Shown: positions 6,115 through 43,713 of the stretch, in pieces | How positions within the stretch are numbered: position 1 is the first letter of the stretch | Layout of the letters: each line of letters begins with the position of its first letter | Origin: a phage | Direction: 5' to 3' (one strand) | NCBI GenBank assembly: GCA_037431425.1 | Contig: GCA_037431425.1_4129.1 | DNA length: 64,000 nucleotides | Program-made: the position numbers and the translations under genes | Notes under the pieces: model-generated | Seen by the model: only the letters and a program-made list of their open reading frames with translations | What the model was told of the DNA's origin: nothing | The model's database searches: none

Positions 6115-6239
<125 letters not shown>

Positions 6240-6246
6240 CAAAAGA

Positions 6247-6320
6247 CGGGGTATAGCACAATTGGATAGTGCAAGAGAATTCTAATCTCTAGGTTGGGGG
6301 TTCAAGTCCCTCTACCTCGG
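6247..6320 (+). tRNA. tRNA-Arg(UCU)
   Basis: hand-folded: acceptor CGGGGTA/TACCTCG (one G-U), D-stem GCAC/GTGC, anticodon loop ATTCTAA, T-loop TTCAAGT. Confidence 0.9.
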
Positions 6321-6344
6321 CCTACTTCAATTAAAGGTTAAACC

Positions 6345-6509
6345 ATGACGCATGAAGAATGGATGAATGACATTAATTTTAGATATGCAGGTATCGGTAA
6401 CTGGAGAAAGTATCATTGGGAAATCATATCAGACCCAGCAGAATACGATAAACTTATGAATCATGAAGTGTATCCGTGGTTCTTTATTGAAATAATGGTA
6501 CGATTATGA
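6345..6509 (+). CDS. MTHEEWM mini-protein, 54 aa
   Basis: translated by hand; ATGA coupling to next paralogue. Confidence 0.6.
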   Translation: MTHEEWMNDINFRYAGIGNWRKYHWEIISDPAEYDKLMNHEVYPWFFIEIMVRL

Positions 6510-6666
6510 CACATGAAGAATGGATGAATGACATTAATTTTAGATATTCGGGTATCGGTAAATGGCTAAAGTATCATTGGGAATTCATTTCAGAGCCACA
6601 TCTGTATGATAAACTTATCAACGATTCTGCATATAAAATGTACTTAATTGAACTACTGGTACGAAC

Positions 6667-6670
<4 letters not shown>
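6506..6670 (+). CDS. MTHEEWM mini-protein, 54 aa
   Basis: near-identical N-terminal half to 6345 copy; ATGA coupling. Confidence 0.6.
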
Positions 6671-6839
<169 letters not shown>

Positions 6840-6843
6840 AATC

Positions 6844-7284
<441 letters not shown>

Positions 7285-7312
7285 GTATCTTAACAACAGA
7301 AGGTATATTGAA

Positions 7313-7552
7313 ATGGGTAAGTATTTTGTGAGTTATAGTTATAATGTATCACGAAAGATTCCACGCGGTGACGGAATGGGATGGTCTTATGATGCATATA
7401 CTTTAAATGAGTCATGTATCATCGAATTACAAGAAAAAGACCTTGACATTTTAAAAATCAAACAATATATTCTTGATGTTGAATTGGCACATCGTACTGA
7501 TACCTATCCAGATGTAAACAACATCAGCATCTTAGTACTAACCAAAGTATAA
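7313..7552 (+). CDS. hypothetical protein, 79 aa
   Basis: track ORF trimmed to ATG 7313 with AGAAGG SD. Confidence 0.6.
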   Translation: MGKYFVSYSYNVSRKIPRGDGMGWSYDAYTLNESCIIELQEKDLDILKIKQYILDVELAHRTDTYPDVNNISILVLTKV

Positions 7553-7622
7553 GATAAAAAGAACTTTACTAAATAATTCCACTGGAGATTAATATGTTTA
7601 AAGATGAACGTCCAGATTTGTA

Positions 7623-7661
<39 letters not shown>

Positions 7662-7667
7662 GAATTC

Positions 7668-8006
7668 CACAATCAGACGTATATGGTGTAAGTTACGTCG
7701 ATGCTATCCAGAACAAGATCTCTGGTACTCTAGGAAGTGGTGAATGTTAACCTAGACGGGTTTGATAATTGGACGATAGGCAATTATTACTTGACTAGCA
7801 GGTTGAAACTAGAGGTGACAGTCCTTCACCAAACTGGAAAGCCGGATGGACTTTTATTTAAAAGGGTAAGGCGTGGAAATATGTTTACTGTAGTTGCTTT
7901 TAGTAGCCTGTACGCCCCACGTCAAGGTAGTCGAAAGGCAAGTTAAAACGGGTGGTTATAAAGCTGAATTAACAGCGGCGTTTAAAAGCGTCACCATCCA
8001 TTTTTT
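7668..8006 (+). ncRNA. candidate structured RNA of about 340 nt, class unknown
   Basis: strong promoter, no SD-led ORF, visibly higher GC than flanks, local hairpins (GGTGA-CAGTCCT-TCACC; CTAG..CTAG), ends in weak hairpin plus T7 run. Confidence 0.4.
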
Positions 8007-8023
8007 TAATTAAAGTTGGCTAT

Positions 8024-8391
<368 letters not shown>

Positions 8392-8401
<10 letters not shown>

Positions 8402-8420
8402 TATTCAGTACTGATATAAT
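8392..8420 (+). promoter_or_regulatory. promoter TGGACA-N17-TATAAT with AGTACT in spacer
   Basis: -10 ends 6 nt before tRNA-Ser(GCU) 5' end. Confidence 0.55.
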
Positions 8421-8426
8421 TAATTT

Positions 8427-8513
<87 letters not shown>

Positions 8514-8525
8514 TAAATTGTTCCA

Positions 8526-8612
<87 letters not shown>

Positions 8613-8662
8613 CTGATATTGTTATTATATGAGTTCTAACGATAATGAAACACTAGGAACAT

Positions 8663-8833
<171 letters not shown>

Positions 8834-8857
8834 ACGAAATTACAATAGGAAATTAAA

Positions 8858-9043
8858 ATGCAACTTTTAATTCTTTCAATATTGTATATTATTATAATGG
8901 TTCCGATATCAATACGTTTAATTACAGTTGAACGATTTTTATCGAAACATGGAAATAGATCTATGATATTTGTACCAATCGGGTTGATATTGTTTGGTAT
9001 ATTTTCATTTATAATGGGAATTAACGCTACATTCATTTCATAG
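8858..9043 (+). CDS. small membrane protein, 61 aa (2 TM)
   Basis: two hydrophobic helices; the antisense track ORF overlaps the tRNA and is rejected. Confidence 0.6.
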   Translation: MQLLILSILYIIIMVPISIRLITVERFLSKHGNRSMIFVPIGLILFGIFSFIMGINATFIS

Positions 9044-9052
9044 GAAACAAAT

Positions 9053-9310
<258 letters not shown>

Positions 9311-9324
9311 ATAAAAAGAACGAA

Positions 9325-9647
<323 letters not shown>

Positions 9648-9649
9648 TA

Positions 9650-9833
<184 letters not shown>

Positions 9834-9913
9834 TAAATAATACAGTAAGATGGCCTCCCCTCCATATCATGAGAGTATAGAGACTTGTTGGTTATCTTAC
9901 TTTTAAACAAACT

Positions 9914-9987
9914 GCCTCAATAGCAAAATTGGTAATGCACACGTTTTGTAAGCGTGAGATTTTTCCGTTCGAGTCGGAATTGGGGCA
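9914..9987 (+). tRNA. tRNA-Thr(UGU)
   Basis: acceptor GCCTCAA/TTGGGGC (one U-G), anticodon stem CACGT/GCGTG, loop TTTGTAA, T-arm TTCCG-TTCGAGT-CGGAA. Confidence 0.88.
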
Positions 9988-10004
9988 CAAAATAAAGGCA
10001 CACT

Positions 10005-17356: not shown

Positions 17357-17817
17357 TGATACTACTAGTATTATTATCAAGCCCGTTTGCTTATTTTATT
17401 CTGTATAATATTTTTAGTAATGCTCATCATTTTAAATACGCACAAACAATTGCAAAACATGAAGGATGGTGGCATTTTTTTCCAGCACTACTGTGTTCAT
17501 ATATGTTCAATGAACGCTATTTTATTTTTCCAGAATATACAAAGTACTATTATGATACTAAAATAAATGGCATAATTGAGTACTGTCTACGTAATTATCT
17601 GAACAATACAGATAATGTTAAAGTGAATTTATTAAATGGAAATTCACCAAGAATAGTCTTTACATCTTACATAGAAGACCCCATTTACTTATATCTATAT
17701 GATTATAGTATTTCGGTTCGTTGTTCTATGCGTAGTAGTTGTGAGTACTTTATCTTACTACCTACACAAATAAGATTAATAGAAAAATACTTGAAATTGA
17801 TTGACAAAAAAGATTAG
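17356..17817 (+). CDS. membrane-anchored protein, 153 aa
   Basis: TAATG coupling; N-terminal TM. Confidence 0.7.
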   Translation: MILLVLLSSPFAYFILYNIFSNAHHFKYAQTIAKHEGWWHFFPALLCSYMFNERYFIFPEYTKYYYDTKINGIIEYCLRNYLNNTDNVKVNLLNGNSPRIVFTSYIEDPIYLYLYDYSISVRCSMRSSCEYFILLPTQIRLIEKYLKLIDKKD

Positions 17818-17829
17818 TAGGGTTATAAT
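17801..17829 (+). promoter_or_regulatory. promoter TTGACA-N17-TATAAT
   Basis: consensus hexamers overlapping the end of the upstream CDS. Confidence 0.6.
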
Positions 17830-18321: not shown

Positions 18322-18744
18322 ATGTTCACACTAAGTAATACAAAATATCTTTTTCTTATTAGTATTATTGGTTGGGTTATGGCTCCAGTGCTTAATGCAC
18401 TGGGGATTCCAGAGGAACACAAACTTGTCAATATTTCAGGTTTAATCCAAGCTATTTCGTGGTATTCATTAATCATATTTTTTGTGTGTATTAACACATT
18501 TGCACGCGAGTATCGACGCTTACTTTATTTTAAAGTTTTCGGAACCACATACTATAGTTTTCTTTATACATTTATTTTAGTTCCATGTGTAGTATATGCC
18601 TTTGTTTTTGATTACTATACATATATGTGGGTGTGTAGTACAATGTTTGTTATGTTAGAATATACAAGAACTATTCAAAACTCATATGCAGAAGAGTTTC
18701 ATGATCAAGAAGTCAAACGCAAATTAACGGAGCTAAACAAATGA
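18322..18744 (+). CDS. polytopic membrane protein, 140 aa
   Basis: track ORF trimmed to ATG 18322; several hydrophobic helices. Confidence 0.7.
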   Translation: MFTLSNTKYLFLISIIGWVMAPVLNALGIPEEHKLVNISGLIQAISWYSLIIFFVCINTFAREYRRLLYFKVFGTTYYSFLYTFILVPCVVYAFVFDYYTYMWVCSTMFVMLEYTRTIQNSYAEEFHDQEVKRKLTELNK

Positions 18745-19166
18745 GAGTATATAATAAAATTTGTATTTTTGTATTTTTAGTTTGTGCGTTCAATTCCTTT
18801 GGCTACTACTGCAACGAAAACAATATTTCATATGGATTAAATCCTTTGTGGTTTTCAATTTCAAATGTAGCTCAAACTGGTATTGCTATTATGTCTGCCC
18901 TTATGTTCTTTCCAATAGTTACGATGGATACTGATTATGAAAGGCTTGGATTTATCCGTGATACTGGTGACGAACCTTACAGTAGATTGATTGTGTTGTA
19001 TCCATTTATTGTTATATTAGGTACTAATATCCAACTTGGGTCTTTATCTAATAGTCTTACTTCAGCAGTCATTACCATCTTTGCATTCATATTTTTTATG
19101 GTACACAAATCAGTACTTAAATGGCACATCACTCAATTGGCAGAGAAGGGTACAGAAATCAGTTGA
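18741..19166 (+). CDS. polytopic membrane protein, 141 aa
   Basis: ATGA coupling; hydrophobic helices. Confidence 0.7.
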   Translation: MRVYNKICIFVFLVCAFNSFGYYCNENNISYGLNPLWFSISNVAQTGIAIMSALMFFPIVTMDTDYERLGFIRDTGDEPYSRLIVLYPFIVILGTNIQLGSLSNSLTSAVITIFAFIFFMVHKSVLKWHITQLAEKGTEIS

Positions 19167-19191
19167 CGTGATGTATCGAGTCATATATAAT
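19163..19191 (+). promoter_or_regulatory. promoter TTGACG-N17-TATAAT
   Basis: upstream stop TGA sits inside the -35. Confidence 0.6.
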
Positions 19192-19225: not shown

Positions 19226-19477
19226 ATGAACATTGATAAGGTCAAAGAACTTAGTGCAGCACTAATTAAGAACGAAGAAGTATGTGAAGAACTTCGCAGT
19301 ACTATCAAAGTGGAGTATGCACGTCTTCAAGCTATGCTTCAGGAGTCAGAATGGGTTGTAACGAAATCTATCGAATCCATCTATAAGGATATCGAATCTC
19401 TTTTTAACAAGAAAAGTAAAATCGAATCTGATTCATATAACAAACGCAAAGAATTAAATTCAGTACTTGGAATCTAA
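19226..19477 (+). CDS. coiled-coil-like protein, 83 aa
   Basis: AAGGA SD. Confidence 0.7.
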   Translation: MNIDKVKELSAALIKNEEVCEELRSTIKVEYARLQAMLQESEWVVTKSIESIYKDIESLFNKKSKIESDSYNKRKELNSVLGI

Positions 19478-19487
19478 AAAAAAGTAT

Positions 19488-19516
19488 TTGACATAAAACA
19501 AAATATGGAGTACAGT
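19488..19516 (+). promoter_or_regulatory. promoter TTGACA-N17-TACAGT
   Basis: overlaps hairpin ATATGGAG..CTCCATAT. Confidence 0.4.
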
Positions 19517-19554
19517 GTGCTCCATATTTAATTATAAGATAAAAGGAAACCGTT

Positions 19555-19824
19555 ATGAAATCTATTCTCGTTGCAGTTAACCAGATTGCTTCTCCATCTT
19601 TCAACTTCAAACAAGCTGTTGCTGATAAATTGAAGAAAATCTGCCCCAACGCTGAATTAACGTTCTGTGTGTTTGATTCTGAAAAAGTATCAACGGTTGA
19701 TCTAAACTATATCATCAACGACATTAAAAGCATTTCAGGCGAAAGTAATTTAAACTTACTAAATGAGATTGCTGATGATTATGATCATACACTAGTAATT
19801 TCGGAGAAATATTCAATCAAATGA
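19555..19824 (+). CDS. hypothetical protein, 89 aa
   Basis: AAGGA SD. Confidence 0.7.
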   Translation: MKSILVAVNQIASPSFNFKQAVADKLKKICPNAELTFCVFDSEKVSTVDLNYIINDIKSISGESNLNLLNEIADDYDHTLVISEKYSIK

Positions 19825-20240
19825 TTAGATTACTTCAGTACTTAATCATTAAATTTTTTGGCTGTCATACAATTGAAGGAAAAGCTACACTTGCACATAA
19901 AATTTTTGTAGCATTGTGTACAGGTGATTATGACGTATTGAATAAGTACTGTAAATCTCAAGCATGTATTGATATAATGGCACTTCGTATCTATGAGTGT
20001 CAATTCAATAGATATAATTTTTACCAGTACAGATATGATAAACAAGAATTTGATAGTTTTGGAATGTTAAAAAATTTATGCAACAATAAAAAGAATATGC
20101 ATATATCTGAATTTATTGCTTTGTATTTTTATTTAAAAAGTTCATTGTTCATGAACACGAGTCAACTTTTTGATACTAGATTTAATGCATTCAAAGGTGA
20201 AGAATTTTACATATATAATAAATTCTTAGATAAGGTTTAA
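19821..20240 (+). CDS. hypothetical protein, 139 aa
   Basis: ATGA coupling. Confidence 0.7.
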   Translation: MIRLLQYLIIKFFGCHTIEGKATLAHKIFVALCTGDYDVLNKYCKSQACIDIMALRIYECQFNRYNFYQYRYDKQEFDSFGMLKNLCNNKKNMHISEFIALYFYLKSSLFMNTSQLFDTRFNAFKGEEFYIYNKFLDKV

Positions 20241-20241
20241 T

Positions 20242-20739
20242 ATGACAACAGTTTACATTGATAAACGATTAAATTTATTGATTACTGATTCTAGAGTTAC
20301 ATTAACCATACCACGAAACTTATTTGGTATTTTCCCACTAAAACCAAAATATCAATATGAAGTTGTTAATCAAAAAACTTTATATGTACATGACCGTTTA
20401 TTCAGTGCTAGTGGGACAATAAGTGAAATTGATAAAGTACTGAATTGGTTAATTAACAAAGAACCTGTTATACCGCACAAAAAACTAGGTTGTCATTGTG
20501 TTCTACTATCCAAAGATTATATCATTCACATGAATATATCTAATGGTAAGTTCACTAAGAAACTTCAATATCTTCATGAAGACTATACATTCTTTATGGG
20601 AAGTGGTGGAGAGTATATGGTAGATGCAGCAATACATGAAGACACTACGACTTTATGTAATAAAGTTTTTAGTACATTCATGGACGTTCATAACCATGAT
20701 TCTTTTACAGATAGTAATATTAATGTGTATAAATTTTAA
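20242..20739 (+). CDS. HslV/proteasome-beta-like Ntn-hydrolase (Thr protease), 165 aa
   Basis: MTT N-terminus (Thr nucleophile after Met removal); KTLYVHDRLFSASGT aligns with HslV KVRRLYNDKVIAGFAGGT; FMGSGGEYMVDAA aligns with IGSGGPYAQAAA. Confidence 0.6.
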   Translation: MTTVYIDKRLNLLITDSRVTLTIPRNLFGIFPLKPKYQYEVVNQKTLYVHDRLFSASGTISEIDKVLNWLINKEPVIPHKKLGCHCVLLSKDYIIHMNISNGKFTKKLQYLHEDYTFFMGSGGEYMVDAAIHEDTTTLCNKVFSTFMDVHNHDSFTDSNINVYKF

Positions 20740-20760
20740 TTTCGTCAATAGGAGAAGTAG

Positions 20761-21726
20761 GTGAAAAAACTTGATTTGAATACAATTGCAGATGAAGTTC
20801 TGGATGAATGCTTTGGTAATGAAGAAGTGAATACGCTGGATGCGTTAGAACCAGTTCAAGAAAAAGATAACATTGACGAGAAAAATAATGGTAATTTCAA
20901 GTTTAATATTAGTCTTAAGCGACCAGCAAATGTAACAAATGAAGATATTATTCGTGATATTCAAGCAGGTATTAACGTAAAGAAAAATACTGAACTATTA
21001 GTTCGTTATAATTACGGTTTGATTATTGATGTTGCAAGTAAATGCACGTGTTATATTCCATTTGAAGATAAGATTTCATATGGCATTGAGGGATTCATGC
21101 GAGCATTAAAAACATTTGACCTTAGTAAGAATGTAAAGTTCGCTACGTATGCATCGTCAAGTATCTATATGACTGTATACAATGAAAGCTCAGATGCTAA
21201 TCATCTGGTCCACTTCCCTCGTTACATGAGTGTTAATAAGATACAAGTGAAACGCTTCTGTCATAATTATGAGCGTCAGCATGGTTGTCGTCCTACACCT
21301 GAAATTATTTCTGAAGAGACTGGTATTGAAATCCAGCACGTTAAGAATTGTTTATTATTCCAAAGTGAATATACTTCACTGGATGCACCATTGGATGGTG
21401 TTTCTGATGGGACGATGAGTGATATTCTGCATTCATCTGAAGGTGATTATAATCTTAATGTTGACAGTATTCGTGCACCGTTGCGTTATACCATCAACGA
21501 ACTAACTAATGAGTTGAGTGCTAAGGAATGTGAGATTATTCAACGTGTTCATGGATTAGGTGAATTTAATCCTGAAACACTACGTGAAATTGCTGATAGT
21601 GGTTTTATTGATGACAATGGTAAGTGTGTAAAATCCAGATCTTCGGTTCATCGTAAATACAGTGATGCTCTTAAGAAACTCAAGAAATTAGTGCTCGCTA
21701 AAGGGTACGAATACGAAGATTTCTAA
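20761..21726 (+). CDS. sigma-70 family RNA polymerase sigma factor, 321 aa
   Basis: GTG start with GGAGA SD; region 2 (YGIEGFMRALKTFDLSKNVKFATYASSSIYMTV), region 3 and region 4 (TLREIAD..VHRKYSDALKKLK) recognisable. Confidence 0.8.
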   Translation: MKKLDLNTIADEVLDECFGNEEVNTLDALEPVQEKDNIDEKNNGNFKFNISLKRPANVTNEDIIRDIQAGINVKKNTELLVRYNYGLIIDVASKCTCYIPFEDKISYGIEGFMRALKTFDLSKNVKFATYASSSIYMTVYNESSDANHLVHFPRYMSVNKIQVKRFCHNYERQHGCRPTPEIISEETGIEIQHVKNCLLFQSEYTSLDAPLDGVSDGTMSDILHSSEGDYNLNVDSIRAPLRYTINELTNELSAKECEIIQRVHGLGEFNPETLREIADSGFIDDNGKCVKSRSSVHRKYSDALKKLKKLVLAKGYEYEDF

Positions 21727-21731
21727 ATTGT

Positions 21732-21758
21732 AAAGGTTGGCATATGCCAACCTTTTTT
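21732..21758 (+). terminator. rho-independent terminator
   Basis: GGTTGGCA-TA-TGCCAACC plus T6. Confidence 0.8.
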
Positions 21759-21761
21759 ATT

Positions 21762-21789
21762 GGGACACAGAATAAATATATGATATAAT
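21762..21789 (+). promoter_or_regulatory. promoter GGGACA-N16-TATAAT (same architecture as tRNA promoter at 6115)
   Basis: read directly; ..TGATATAAT as at 6131-6142. Confidence 0.5.
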
Positions 21790-22314: not shown

Positions 22315-22343
22315 TAGACAGTTATGAAACATTCGCGTATAAT
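22315..22343 (+). promoter_or_regulatory. promoter TAGACA-N17-TATAAT
   Basis: read directly upstream of gene 22408. Confidence 0.5.
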
Positions 22344-39987: not shown

Positions 39988-41205
39988 ATGGATAAAAATA
40001 TGATCTTCGAAACTGAAAAAACATTACTTGAAACTTACACTTTGGATAATCTAGTTAAACTTAACCTTGAACGACCAGATATCCAACGCAATTGGCAATG
40101 GAAAAATAATAACCAAAACAATCTTATTATTTCCATTCTAAAGAATTCTCCAATTGGTCAATTTTTAGTATGGAATGAAACTAGTTCAAATACGATGTAC
40201 ATCACTGATGGTCGTCATCGCTATACAGTAATTTCAAACTTCATGAACAATAAATTCCCAGTCACTGTTAGAACTGAAGATGGGACTAAGGATTATTATT
40301 ATGGTTCTGATGATCCAGTAGAAGAAGAAAGCATTTCACTGAAACTTGGTGGAAAGCGTAAAACATGGGATTTTTTATCTAAAGAAGAGCGTGATGCTTT
40401 TCGTGCAAAGGAAGTATCAGTAACATTCGTTCATACAGACGATGCTGAAAAGATTTCAGATATGTTTATTGCAATTAATACTGCATCATCTAATCTATGT
40501 AAAGTTGATTTGTTAGTATGTAAGCACCACACAAATACATATATGAAACGTATTGATAAGCTATTTTCAATTGAGTTTGGCAAAGATGAACCCATGGCAG
40601 CATTAGTGAGTGATTTTTACCGTGCAATCGGTCATTGTTGTGTTAATGGTAATCATGAGAAACACTTATCGAAGCTTAAAGCTAACCCTAAAGTACAGAA
40701 GCGTGAATTTTTTGAAATGTTCTTTATGGTCAAAGCGTTCGCGAAATTATGTGCTAGTGCACTAGATGGTAAGCTAAACTCATACCGTATGCCAAAGATG
40801 AACCAACAAATTGAAGAAGCAATTATTAGTACTGAATCTCTTAGTGAGAAACATGCTGATGCTGATTTTGTTCAGTTTGTTAATGCAGTTCGTGAGATGA
40901 ATTTGGTATCACCTGTAAAATCTGCACAAAAATTTCAATTTATCCATGAAGATATGAAGAATACCTTTAATAAGAGACTCTTTTGTATTTTGATGGGATT
41001 GTTTTATGCTTATGGTACAAGATTGCCATTACATTTTCGTGATGTATGGGGTGACATTTATAATGAAATGTCAGAAAAAAGTTCAGAACTACCTACTAAT
41101 GGAACCGATAGTCCTTCCGCAATTTTAGCTGGCATTGAAATGATTGAACCATACTTTAGTTCAGCATTTAATAATATTCCATTGAGTGCTTACGTGGGAA
41201 AGTGA
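39988..41205 (+). CDS. DUF262 / ParB-like nuclease superfamily protein (GmrS-like), 405 aa
   Basis: N-terminal DIQRNWQW...ITDGRHRYTVIS matches the DUF262 (F/Y)QRxYxW ... DGQQR signature. Confidence 0.65.
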   Translation: MDKNMIFETEKTLLETYTLDNLVKLNLERPDIQRNWQWKNNNQNNLIISILKNSPIGQFLVWNETSSNTMYITDGRHRYTVISNFMNNKFPVTVRTEDGTKDYYYGSDDPVEEESISLKLGGKRKTWDFLSKEERDAFRAKEVSVTFVHTDDAEKISDMFIAINTASSNLCKVDLLVCKHHTNTYMKRIDKLFSIEFGKDEPMAALVSDFYRAIGHCCVNGNHEKHLSKLKANPKVQKREFFEMFFMVKAFAKLCASALDGKLNSYRMPKMNQQIEEAIISTESLSEKHADADFVQFVNAVREMNLVSPVKSAQKFQFIHEDMKNTFNKRLFCILMGLFYAYGTRLPLHFRDVWGDIYNEMSEKSSELPTNGTDSPSAILAGIEMIEPYFSSAFNNIPLSAYVGK

Positions 41206-41414
41206 AAAAACGTGGTGTACTAAATACACCACAAAAACAATATCTTTTGAAAAGATATTCTTTGTGTTATCTTTGTGGACAGAAGATATCGGATTCAGAT
41301 ATACTACATTTTGACCATGTTCAATCATTAAAAGATGGTGGTAGTAATGAATTAAGTAATATACGACCAACGCACTCCATTTGTAATTTACGTAAAGGTG
41401 CTAAGAGTATGTAA
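41202..41414 (+). CDS. small HNH endonuclease (GmrD-like partner), 70 aa
   Basis: GTGA overlap with DUF262 stop; HFDHVQSLKDGGSNELSNIRPTHSICNLRKG is a classic H-N-H. Confidence 0.7.
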   Translation: MKKRGVLNTPQKQYLLKRYSLCYLCGQKISDSDILHFDHVQSLKDGGSNELSNIRPTHSICNLRKGAKSM

Positions 41415-41463
41415 AGCTAATACTCCCCAAAGATGGGGAGTATATATAATTAAAGGGATTTAT

Positions 41464-42300
41464 ATGAGTATTAAAAATAAATTAGATCAGTATTATACAA
41501 ATCCAGAGTATGCTAAAAAATGTTATACTAAATCATTAGAGTTTATTTCGTCTCGAATGGACATTAATTCATCTTATTATATGGAGCCTTGTGTTGGGAC
41601 TGGTTCGTTTTATCTACAGTTTCCTGAATCCCGTCGATTTGGGTGTGACATTGATCCGGTACATCTTGATGAAAATGTTATCCATTCCGATTTTTTACTT
41701 GAATTTGGTATCAATGCAAGAAGTAAAGGTGAACCAATACTTGTTATAAGTAATCCACCTTTTGGGAAAATTTCTTCTTTAGCCATTAAGTTTTTTAATA
41801 AATGTGCATCAATGCCTGAAGTGAAATATATTTGTTTTATTGTCCCTATGACATTTCGAAAAGCAGCAACACAAAATAAACTCAATGAGATGTTTCACCT
41901 GGTATTAGATGAAGATTCACCAAATGACGCTTTTATACTGCACGGAGAACCACATCATGTACCATGCGTATTTCAGATATGGGAACGTAGGGATACAGTT
42001 CGTGAGAAACATGAGATTAAGAACAAATCAGACTATTTCGACTATTGTACTAAGGAAGAGGCTGATGTTTTTATAAAACGTGTAGGAACCAAAGCAGGTG
42101 AGTATGCCGAGCCAGGGAAAGAACACAAAGATGCAAGTATGTACTACATTAAAACTAAGTATGTTGATGAAATCATTAAGGTTTTGAAAAGTAAAGATTA
42201 CCTTGATGAGATAAAACGTATACGTAAAACCACAGCAGGGGTATACTGTGTGTCCAAATCTGAAATCGTTCTTAATATTGAAAAACGTTTGAATCTTTGA
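41464..42300 (+). CDS. DNA methyltransferase, NPPF (N6-A or N4-C) gamma-type, 278 aa
   Basis: motif I EPCVGTGSF, then motif IV SNPPFGK; start moved to ATG 41464 after hairpin ACTCCCC..GGGGAGT and AAGGGA SD. Confidence 0.75.
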   Translation: MSIKNKLDQYYTNPEYAKKCYTKSLEFISSRMDINSSYYMEPCVGTGSFYLQFPESRRFGCDIDPVHLDENVIHSDFLLEFGINARSKGEPILVISNPPFGKISSLAIKFFNKCASMPEVKYICFIVPMTFRKAATQNKLNEMFHLVLDEDSPNDAFILHGEPHHVPCVFQIWERRDTVREKHEIKNKSDYFDYCTKEEADVFIKRVGTKAGEYAEPGKEHKDASMYYIKTKYVDEIIKVLKSKDYLDEIKRIRKTTAGVYCVSKSEIVLNIEKRLNL

Positions 42301-42308
42301 AAATTATA

Positions 42309-42340
42309 GGTTGACTTCGGTCAGCCTTTATTGTTATAAT
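42309..42340 (+). promoter_or_regulatory. terminator-promoter cassette copy 5
   Basis: GGTTGAC-TTCG-GTCAGCC; TATAAT 18 nt after -35. Confidence 0.75.
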
Positions 42341-42368
42341 CATTTTATATAACCAAGAGGATGATTAC

Positions 42369-42872
42369 ATGACACGCATTAATTTAGTACACGTTAAAGA
42401 ACTTGCTGACCAACATTTGATGGCTGAATATCGTGAACTTCCACGGGTGTTCGGTGCTGTACAAAAACACGTTCAAGCACGTAAGCGTGTCCGTGATTTT
42501 AAAATTAACAGTACTTATCTGTTAGGTTCAGGCCATGTGACATTCTTCTACGACAAGTTACTGTACTTACAAAAGCGTCATGTTGAGATTGTTAACGAAT
42601 GTTTGCGTCGTGGTATGAAGATTCAAAACACGGAAGTAAACGACATCAGCGGCTTCCCTGATGAGTTTTGTAATGACTACGTACCATCGGAGTCAGAGAT
42701 TAAAATGTCTCGTGACCGTTTGATTGAGAAGCTCCAGATGAAGCCTAAGTGGTATAAGTTTACTGCTGTTGAAATTCCACAGTACGTTAAAGATATGCAG
42801 AACGTAAAATCTAGTACTGATATGTTCGAAGAAATTGAAGAGCAAATCAAAGATGAAATGAATAATTATTAA
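42369..42872 (+). CDS. denV: pyrimidine-dimer DNA glycosylase (T4 endonuclease V family), 167 aa
   Basis: [41 protein letters not shown] is near-identical in pattern to T4 EndoV; C-terminal extension of about 30 aa. Confidence 0.9.
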
Positions 42873-42878
42873 AGGTAA

Positions 42879-42911
42879 GGGTTGACTTCGGTCAACCCTT
42901 TTTGCTATAAT
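42879..42911 (+). promoter_or_regulatory. terminator-promoter cassette copy 6
   Basis: GGGTTGAC-TTCG-GTCAACCC plus T-run; TATAAT 18 nt after -35. Confidence 0.75.
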
Positions 42912-42939
42912 CATTTCATCAACTACAGAGGGTAACGAA

Positions 42940-43713
42940 ATGAACCGTACAGAAAAAGCACTTCAAATCGAAAAAAACTTCAACTCCATGATGGCAGCAC
43001 TGGAATGTCTTCTGGATACGCAAACTAACTCCATCAATTCTTTGATTGTATCAGGAAAAGGTGGTGTTGGTAAAACTTACAACGTTGACCAGCGTTTACG
43101 GAAAGCGGATGATAACTTTGAAATTGACTACAAAAAAATCAGTGGTAAAGTAACTACTGTGGGTCTGTACGAAGCACTGTATCGTTCACGTCATGCTGCT
43201 TCTGTACTGTTGCTGGATGATGTTGATATCTTCTCTGATGAGACTAACATTGACTTACTCAAAGCTGTATTGGATACATCTGAAAAGCGTGTAGTATCAT
43301 ATGCAACATCTGCTAAGTACCTTGAACAGCAGGGTATTCCTAAGCAGTTTGAATTCCGTGGTAAGGTTATTTTCCTGACGAACAAAAACCTGTCACAGAT
43401 TGCTAAAGGTAAAAGTAGTTTAGCACCACACATCGATGCACTGATTACTCGTAGCATCTTTGTTGATCTGCAACTGTTTACAAATGAAGAAGTAATGATT
43501 CACATTGAAAATATTATGAACAAAACAAACATCCTTGAAAACAATGGTGTTAACAAAAATGGTTGCAAAGCAATTCTGAATTGGATGCTGAACAATGAAG
43601 ATCGTCTGCGTAGCCCATCACTGCGTATGCCAGTACTGATCGCTGGTTTGTATAATAAATTTCCATACGACTGGGAGTCTATGGCAGAGAATATGTTCCT
43701 TGAGAAAATTTAA
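42940..43713 (+). CDS. P-loop (AAA-like) ATPase, 257 aa
   Basis: Walker A SGKGGVGKT; Walker B VLLLDDVD. Confidence 0.7.
   Translation: MNRTEKALQIEKNFNSMMAALECLLDTQTNSINSLIVSGKGGVGKTYNVDQRLRKADDNFEIDYKKISGKVTTVGLYEALYRSRHAASVLLLDDVDIFSDETNIDLLKAVLDTSEKRVVSYATSAKYLEQQGIPKQFEFRGKVIFLTNKNLSQIAKGKSSLAPHIDALITRSIFVDLQLFTNEEVMIHIENIMNKTNILENNGVNKNGCKAILNWMLNNEDRLRSPSLRMPVLIAGLYNKFPYDWESMAENMFLEKI

Follow-up and report, generated by a model that had tools for sequence, protein, structure and literature searches.

A predicted proteasome-family hydrolase related to HslV and to phage PPH proteins, encoded directly upstream of a sigma-70-family factor in a 121Q-like jumbo coliphage

Proteasome homologues encoded by phages were catalogued bioinformatically in 2021 (PMC8665760), and in the literature we found none with a known substrate, partner or quaternary structure. 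In that catalogue PPH and RPC are proteasome homologues without helix H2, several of the new homologues seem incompatible with ring assemblies, the alpha subunits are inactive subunits of proteasome fold, and the specificity-determining lid of connectase sits in the segment between Asp17 and Lys33 (Fuchs et al., 2021; PMC8665760). An orphan phage HslV was already noted for pSal-SNUABM-04 (PMC7823757). In this work we analyzed a phage DNA of 64,000 nt (contig GCA_037431425.1_4129.1 of GenBank assembly GCA_037431425.1), referred to below as the window, in which a gene for a 165-amino-acid (aa) HslV-like protein is followed by a gene for a sigma-70-family factor.

The source of the window is a jumbo coliphage of the 121Q/PBECO4-like (Asteriusvirus, Rak2-like) type. 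A 2.5-kb stretch around the two genes is 98.7% identical to Escherichia phage ph0011 and ∼84% identical to 121Q, PBECO4, phAPEC6, and Sharanji. An earlier note, written from the sequence alone, had described a 165-aa open reading frame (ORF) with an MTT start as an HslV-like threonine protease and a 321-aa ORF 21 nt behind it as a sigma-70 factor; both ORFs lie where that note placed them, and the family of the second one holds (Table 1). We concluded that the 165-aa protein belongs to the proteasome (T1) family of N-terminal nucleophile (Ntn) hydrolases. The reading that we prefer, with a probability of roughly 0.6, is that it is an active N-terminal-threonine hydrolase from a small, phage-restricted and divergent PPH-like branch, that it acts early and not as part of a canonical HslUV, and that its adjacency to the sigma factor gene reflects gene order.

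Homologues were collected by a word-indexed search (11 clusters), by an exhaustive HMMER run of the profile against 1.84 billion representatives (17 proteins with E<=1e-3), and by a second indexed search with a deeper profile (5 further homologues). The final family alignment contained 23 sequences with identity down to 19%, and its members come from phages of several host genera and from metagenomic contigs. The 17 proteins of the exhaustive search did not connect the family to any other named one. The profile search also picked up P0024, a lipocalin-repeat protein of 1360 aa, which was rejected as a false positive due to its repeated 'VTVHNRLFSA' peptide. AlphaFold2 supplied with the 23-sequence alignment produced a model with a predicted local distance difference test (pLDDT) score of 94.7 and a predicted template modelling (pTM) score of 0.85, compared with a pLDDT of 68.6 for an earlier model. 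When the confident model was searched against PDB by Foldseek, the six best matches were all HslV, from five organisms (E 5e-6 to 3.5e-5), at 12-19% sequence identity; HslV and catalytic proteasome beta subunits scored above connectase. The predicted protein is a four-layer alpha-beta-beta-alpha sandwich of proteasome-type topology. A PP2C phosphatase fold had been matched with the poor first model only and vanished with the confident one. The Ntn-hydrolase identity was thus borne out by the predicted fold, which is that of the proteasome and HslV and not an unrelated one.

The N-terminal Thr, whose conservation had been named as the other check on this identity, is present in all 23 homologues, and the other residues of a proteasome-type active site are conserved with it (Table 1), while the mean column identity over the alignment is 38%. 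All 23 begin with M-T-T and have no propeptide, and E. coli HslV likewise begins with MTT. For the N-terminal, GSG, and D..S segments the register was confirmed by a hidden Markov model (HMM) alignment to beta5. The motifs pointed out in the earlier note (TT at the N-terminus, K..LY, and GSGG) are all present in the 165-aa ORF and (nearly) invariant across the family; judged from the aligned sequences, this agreement is far beyond chance. Since the active-site positions are kept in 22-23 of the 23 sequences while the rest has diverged, selection on catalysis is indicated, and this pattern argues for a catalytically active enzyme.

The sequence profiles point the same way. The 165-aa protein matched phrog_1040 'peptidase HslV family' with E 8.7e-5; its own PHROG is phrog_24804, 'unknown function'. 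The phrog_1040 profile was matched by 16 of the 23 family members (best E 7.8e-18) and PF00227 by three, all below the gathering score (best E 0.0013). Searched against PDB sequences, the family profile gave 43 matches, of which ∼40 were proteasome beta (beta5, beta6, beta8) or HslV chains (best E 0.011), and the alignment was in register at TT/TT, DSR/DSR, GSG/GSG(128-130), and D..Y[ST]/D166..S169. The hhalign comparison with pSal-SNUABM-04 ORF1, a phage protein of phrog_1040 type whose annotation carries CDD protease_HslV and PF00227, was full-length and in register but weak (E 0.014). A tblastn search with E. coli HslV neither retrieved this gene nor found a genuine phage homologue. Two other PDB matches, to a phospholipase A2 homologue and an unrelated peptidase, appeared with single-sequence phmmer or a shallow 11-sequence profile; they were spurious and were discarded. 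PADLOC returned no match for the protease and no defence or anti-defence assignment.

By tblastn the protease gene is present in 52 phage records, 33 of them Escherichia, and the hosts include those of culturable E. coli, Klebsiella, and Salmonella jumbo phages. In fEgEco12 it already carries the label 'ATP-dependent protease subunit HslV', and in Turkey3 'ATP-dependent protease', both from PHROG-based pipelines; in nearly all other records whose annotation appeared in those searches it is a hypothetical protein. No paper discussing the 165-aa protease gene was found in a literature search. One branch of the family (P0033) extends to the 147-kb Klebsiella phage 05F01 (LC483177.1), and phrog_1040-type genes also occur in ∼49-kb Klebsiella phages; jumbo phages are not the only carriers of proteasome-like genes.

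The protein departs from HslV at two places. DSSP assignment of the model gave helix H1 at residues 60-72 and then a loop at 73-83 that leads into the strand at 84-89, with no helix H2 in between. The spacing from the active-site Gly to the Ser is 63 residues in the window protein and 63-67 in the family (83 in the outlier P0028), compared with 79 in E. coli HslV and 66 in pSal-SNUABM-04 ORF1. Between the equivalents of Asp17 and Lys33 the family has a spacing of 28-40 residues, compared with 16 in both HslV and pSal-SNUABM-04 ORF1, which amounts to an insertion of 12-24 residues; in the model it forms an elongated beta-hairpin (strands 18-27 and 31-41). P0027 looks intermediate, with a spacing of 19. 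The HslV-like identity proposed in the earlier note thus stands as far as the fold is concerned, but not in the sense of a canonical HslV, given the missing Pfam and NCBIfam matches, the absence of H2, and the insertion beside the active site. Rather than as a bona fide HslV, the protein is best classed as a PPH-like proteasome homologue that lacks H2 and carries an inserted hairpin specific to its family. If the model is right, the loss of H2 would make canonical docking of HslU doubtful.

No HslU-like ATPase gene is adjacent to the protease gene, as the earlier note had it, and no AAA+ gene was found in the window. The only convincing P-loop there, also in line with that note, is SGKGGVGKT in the ORF at 42940..43713, which is a ParA/MinD-type deviant Walker A with a weak AAA_16 match and not an AAA+ unfoldase. 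A tblastn search with E. coli HslU retrieved 153 phage records, mainly chimallivirus-type jumbo phages of Erwinia and Salmonella plus host contamination; at most 4 of the matches are in Escherichia records, compared with the 33 Escherichia records that carry the protease. A phage ring could nevertheless borrow its partner. HslV-like rings would then dock on host HslU, or titrate HslU away from host HslV, and so redirect host proteolysis; in one variant the hybrid would be an ATP-dependent protease with cleavage properties chosen by the phage. HslV is indeed the closest structural relative, the phage supplies the peptidase half only and the E. coli host possesses hslVU, and the orphan HslV of pSal-SNUABM-04 is in the same situation (PMC7823757). 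We nevertheless regard a hybrid machine as unlikely: H2 is missing and an extra hairpin has been added, the identity to HslV is just 12-19%, and the hosts belong to several genera with no evidence of co-variation with host HslU. In the HslUV structures that Sousa and co-workers are said to have reported in 2000, H2 is reportedly one of two apical helices on the HslU-docking face. With H2 missing and no HslU-type ATPase nearby, the protein is therefore most likely not part of a canonical HslUV machine.

Table 1. Positions of the genes, signals, and residues discussed in the text; positions are those of the window unless a residue number or a locus (L) is given.
Feature	Position	Strand	Remarks
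Sigma-70 promoter-like site	17801-17829	+	12/12 consensus matches; ahead of a short-ORF block
Promoter-like TTGACG-17 nt-TATAAT	19163..19191	+	between ORFs 18741..19166 and 19226..19477; 11/12 consensus matches
83-aa ORF	19226..19477	+	first of putative operon; no PADLOC match
Counterparts of the 83-aa ORF	L001:4988-5239, L003:3465-3713, L004:3268-3522, L010:55-327
89-aa ORF	19555..19824	+	phrog_26969
139-aa ORF	19821..20240	+	phrog_37211; stop ends 1 nt before protease start
165-aa proteasome-family (T1) Ntn hydrolase, HslV/PPH-like	20242..20739	+	starts MTTVY
Putative active-site Thr2 (Thr1 after Met removal)	T2		= Thr1; conserved 23/23
Putative active-site Asp16	D16		= Asp17; conserved 23/23
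Putative active-site Lys45	K45		= Lys33; conserved 22/23
Putative active-site Gly58	G58		= Gly47; conserved 23/23
Putative active-site Ser121	S121 (in GSG, 120-122)		= Ser129; conserved 23/23
Putative active-site Asp153	D153		= Asp166; conserved 23/23
Putative active-site Thr156	S/T156		= Ser169; conserved 23/23
Shine-Dalgarno AGGAG	20750..20754	+	6 nt upstream of sigma GTG, within the 21-nt gap
321-aa sigma-70-family factor, RpoD/RpoS-like regions 2-4	20761..21726	+	GTG start; Pfam, phrog_351, NCBIfam, orthologue alignments
Sigma N-terminal motif, residues 1-22	20761-20826	+
Around the start of sigma region 1.2 (N60-E61), residues 58-61	20934-20945	+
Insertion in sigma region 4.2, residues ∼281-297	21601-21650	+
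Intrinsic-terminator-like hairpin	21732..21762	+	10-bp stem, 5 GC pairs, loop of 4, T-run; 6 nt after sigma stop
Sigma-70 promoter-like site	22315-22343	+	11/12 consensus matches; ahead of a short-ORF block
HNH endonuclease, 262 aa	22846-23634		phrog_35175; ∼1.1 kb past the sigma terminator
DUF7325 gene of the divergent branch	L007:3430-3774, L015:6548-6892, L016:6003-6347, L017:640-984
Six tRNA genes	6153-9988		ARAGORN + Rfam
Gene cluster with GmrSD_N/DndB-like protein	39988-43713
DNA-methyltransferase-like ORF	41398-42300
ParA/MinD-type ATPase	42940-43713		phrog_1250
Seven tandem paralogues, 368-449 aa	47291-55969	-

The sigma factor itself is well supported. Pfam scored Sigma70_r3 at 40.3 bits (cut-off 25.3) and Sigma70_r2 at 25.7 bits (cut-off 24), and the match to phrog_351 reached E 3e-53. 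Sigma70_r4 scored 16.5 bits, under its 24.1 cut-off, and the NCBIfam RpoD_Cterm match (E 5.7e-24) was under its curated cut-off; in NCBIfam the protein is RpoD/RpoS-like but misses every equivalog cut-off. The low region-4 score is probably due to an insertion of ∼10 residues (GFIDDNGKCVKS) that appears to interrupt the helix-turn-helix of region 4.2 and in which D284 and G287 are invariant in all orthologues; as far as can be judged from the alignment, it suggests a non-standard -35 recognition. The acidic N-terminal extension described in the earlier note was confirmed (13 D/E and 7 K/R in residues 1-60). It is ∼58 residues long and consists of a conserved motif followed by a variable acidic linker (∼23-58), and region 1.2 starts at N60-E61. 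The motif, KKLNLxxIxDE(V/I)LDECF, is common to nine orthologues with identity down to 31%, and L6, E12, and F18 are invariant. Candidates for its role are a region-1.1-like autoinhibitory element, an RNA polymerase contact, and a partner-binding site.

We compared the gene neighbourhoods of 15 protease loci. A sigma factor gene is near the protease in 8 of them, at protease identities down to 26-33%, and is the most widely shared neighbour; no conserved partner directly upstream or downstream of the protease was shared more widely over the 15 loci. The protease gene lies directly upstream of the sigma gene in the 121Q-like phages, fEgEco12, RaK2, Munch, and the metagenomic contigs P0020 and P0016, and in Munch an annotated terminator separates the two. 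In Erwinia phage Hallingskeid the pair is separated by two small ORFs, and in the P0021 contig by three genes. The remaining 7 loci have no sigma gene within reach, one of these contigs (L013) being short: the P0015 contig was too short to judge sigma linkage, and for P0019, P0022, P0026, P0027, P0030, and P0033 no sigma gene was found within 2-6 kb of the protease, the downstream neighbours of P0022, P0026, and P0027 having also been checked by Pfam. In the P0026/P0030/P0033 branch a 114-aa DUF7325 gene is always directly downstream, often overlapping, in place of the sigma gene. A gene with a weak AAA (PF00004) match was also seen 3-4 kb from the protease in L015 and L016; together with the DUF7325 gene it may make up an alternative set of partners for this protease family.

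The converse was seen as well. A sigma orthologue is found in 79 phage records, and in ∼17 of them (GAP32, CBB, fHe-Yen9-03/04, Serratia BF, XbC2, XaC1, and others, among them the Erwinia phages pEa_SNUABM_12/44/47/49/50) the protease was not detected by tblastn with the window protein, P0021, P0022, P0033, and pSal-SNUABM-04 ORF1 as queries. ORFs of ∼180 aa upstream of the sigma gene in GAP32, XbC2, and fHe-Yen9-04 were considered as diverged proteases and rejected, as they do not begin with MTT and reach no more than 8 bits by HMM. The sigma factors of the protease-negative phages keep the N-terminal motif and the acidic linker, and the sigma N-terminal extension is therefore independent of this protease. 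Over the loci where the sigma gene is kept, several further upstream genes are conserved with it, which fits plain block synteny. Given the two-way loss of co-occurrence, the pair looks like clade-specific synteny in part of the Rak2-like clade, and the adjacency is most simply explained as gene order inherited in one part of the clade. Of the pairing proposed in the earlier note, the adjacency stands for that part of the clade; a dedicated module is unlikely, since each gene occurs without the other.

A protease that acts on sigma factors would offer a functional reason for the pairing, either by processing or turning over the phage sigma factor, for instance through removal of its N-terminal motif and linker much as SpoIIGA processes pro-sigma-E, or by removing competing host sigma factors so that RNA polymerase falls to the phage one. 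It would account for two genes 21 nt apart with no terminator between them, for the sigma gene being the commonest neighbour, and for a ∼58-residue extension with an invariant motif; cellular HslVU reportedly also contributes to sigma-32 turnover, a result attributed to Kanemori and colleagues in 1997 (cited in PMC7730581). This explanation seems quite improbable in view of the six protease loci that lack a sigma gene within 2-6 kb, the ∼17 records in which the sigma factor carries the same motif with the protease undetected, the terminator in Munch, and the co-conservation of other upstream genes. Slightly less probable still is its most specific form, in which the protease, made from the same early transcript and acting as a partner in takeover by Thr1 chemistry without an ATPase, matures the phage sigma factor by cutting off its N-terminal motif and acidic linker or destroys host sigma factors, leaving host RNA polymerase to the phage one. 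If true, it would be the first assigned function of any viral proteasome homologue and a new phage route to reprogramme transcription, and relatives without the protease would need another route.

It is similarly improbable that the protein is a non-degradative Ntn enzyme, for instance a sequence-specific transpeptidase or ligase similar to connectase, or an amidase with a small molecule or a modified peptide as its substrate. The insertion does occupy the segment of the connectase specificity lid, and ring incompatibility of several new homologues would suit an enzyme of this kind (Fuchs et al., 2021; PMC8665760). HslV and the catalytic beta subunits outscored connectase in the structure comparison, however, the insertion is a beta-hairpin whereas the connectase lid consists of two helices, and H1 is kept, unlike in connectase. 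A catalytically dead scaffold or decoy that mimics HslV and poisons host HslV rings or sequesters HslU is very improbable, because, although the protein is an orphan peptidase-like subunit without an ATPase and inactive proteasome-fold subunits (alpha, some beta) are common, its active-site positions are retained by 22 or all of the 23 homologues, in a family that reaches down to 19% identity and has diverged elsewhere.

Several points weigh against our preferred reading, that of an active, early, PPH-like hydrolase next to a sigma gene by gene order. The window protein has no Pfam match at E<=1 and matched no family in NCBIfam. With the single E. coli HslV sequence as the target, hhalign and hmmsearch aligned the family profile over the GSGG region only; such an alignment is by itself not informative about homology. 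The by-eye alignment with E. coli HslV in the earlier note was therefore right in substance, but the direct similarity is statistically weak and confined to this region, and structure and profile evidence were required. The Gly47 and Lys33 equivalents were assigned from their conservation and from where they lie in the model with respect to the strands and H1. We found no biochemical or genetic data in the literature for this protein or any phage proteasome homologue. Isolated proteasome-type subunits are usually inactive outside the assembled ring (PMC8665760), and activity may therefore need assembly or a partner. As to early expression, promoter-like sites are overall not enriched in the region scanned (34 found; 39.7 expected from shuffles). 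Finally, the sigma gene is the single most frequent neighbour of the protease (8/15 loci), which leaves room for a functional link.

Early expression is suggested by the arrangement of the genes. The promoter-like site ahead of the 83-aa ORF is exactly conserved in fEgEco12, and RaK2 has TTGACA-18-TAATAT at the same place. Homologues of the 83-aa ORF are found upstream of the protease in five loci, including the distant P0021 contig (protease identity 26%); the 139-aa ORF, which is translationally coupled to the protease gene, is kept only in the closest relatives. The terminator scan found none between the protease and sigma genes. In CBB, the orthologous sigma gene is one of a group of short ORFs that follow RpoD-like promoters and were read as early host-takeover genes (PMC5259590). 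From the sequence signals we infer that 19226-21726 is a five-gene early operon with a putative promoter at 19163-19191 and an end at the hairpin starting at 21732. The further promoter-like sites in Table 1 are consistent with many small transcription units driven by host RNA polymerase in the early-gene region. A mention of 'proteasome' in the CBB paper (PMC5259590) was followed up and proved to be a reference title only.

The preferred reading would work as follows. Host RNA polymerase would transcribe the protease gene from the putative promoter as part of the early operon that ends with the sigma gene and terminator. Host methionine aminopeptidase would strip Met1, a step that a Thr at position 2 allows, and expose the Thr nucleophile as in E. 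coli HslV. Catalysis would be carried out by T2, D16, and K45 with G58 at the oxyanion position and S121, D153, and T156 in support, all conserved positions. The extended hairpin that separates the counterparts of Asp17 and Lys33 probably tunes the access of substrates or the specificity. Instead of working as a canonical HslUV, the protein would more likely be a peptidase or a specific endoprotease acting on host or phage proteins early in infection. A head-maturation role was considered and ruled out, as Sharanji and phAPEC6 have another gene annotated as the prohead protease.

Other features of the window were recorded in passing. The HNH endonuclease gene downstream of the sigma terminator has parallels in fEgEco12 and GAP32, where HNH genes also flank the sigma gene. 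The ParA/MinD-type ATPase gene is preceded by a gene for a 405-aa GmrSD_N/DndB-like protein (PADLOC NsnA, E 2.6e-15) and then the DNA-methyltransferase-like ORF; this region may be a DNA-modification or anti-restriction cluster. Three of the seven tandem paralogues on the minus strand were scanned and match the RCC1-like phrog_4219 'regulator of chromosome condensation'. The tRNA genes are Ser-TGA, Arg-TCT, Ser-GCT, Met-CAT, Asn-GTT, and Thr-TGT.

The family is experimentally convenient: the phages are culturable, the protein has 165 aa and a conserved active site, and the gene is probably early and lies beside a takeover sigma factor. Finding its substrate, its need for HslU, and whether it forms rings without H2 or acts alone would assign a first function to the viral proteasome-like enzymes and could reveal a new host-takeover or anti-defence step. 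The gene, listed as 'hypothetical protein' in most of the ∼50 deposited genomes, can now be given the annotation proteasome/HslV-like Ntn peptidase (PPH-like). We consider it a reasonable experimental lead for specialists, not a surprise.

Among known pairs of a protease and a sigma factor, spoIIGA-sigE of B. subtilis resembles the locus most in layout, with the protease gene immediately upstream of the sigma gene and an N-terminal extension on the sigma factor. SpoIIGA is a membrane aspartic protease, co-transcribed with sigE, and the coupling is obligate. The folds are unrelated, and the protease and sigma genes described here also occur apart.

Among proteasome relatives, the bacterial HslV (ClpQ; MEROPS T1B) shares the MTT N-terminus that needs only Met removal, the Thr1/Lys33/GSGG residues, and a similar size; the window protein differs by its 12-19% identity, the lack of H2, the added hairpin, and the absence of a cognate hslU gene adjacent or in the window. 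Proteasome beta, Anbu, BPH, and connectase have the same catalytic set, including the Asp166 and Ser169 equivalents. The window protein is much smaller than proteasome beta and Anbu and has neither a propeptide nor the C-terminal H5; compared with connectase, it lacks the helical lid and keeps H1.

The closest class is that of the phage PPH/phrog_1040 proteins (including those of SPN3US and Erwinia phage Asesino, and pSal-SNUABM-04 ORF1), which are likewise phage-borne, start with MTT, have no propeptide, and carry the same catalytic residues on a compact group-I (HslV/BPH-like) core without H2. The window family has a separate PHROG, is longer (165-183 aa versus about 140-157, with PPH, RPC, and DPH compared by published description), and carries the Asp-Lys insertion, which the compact PPH proteins lack. 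The chimallivirus-type phages that carry phrog_1040 often encode an HslU-like ATPase, whereas the Rak2-like phages do not. We concluded that phage proteasome homologues are an already described class (PMC8665760), to which this family is a structurally distinct addition.

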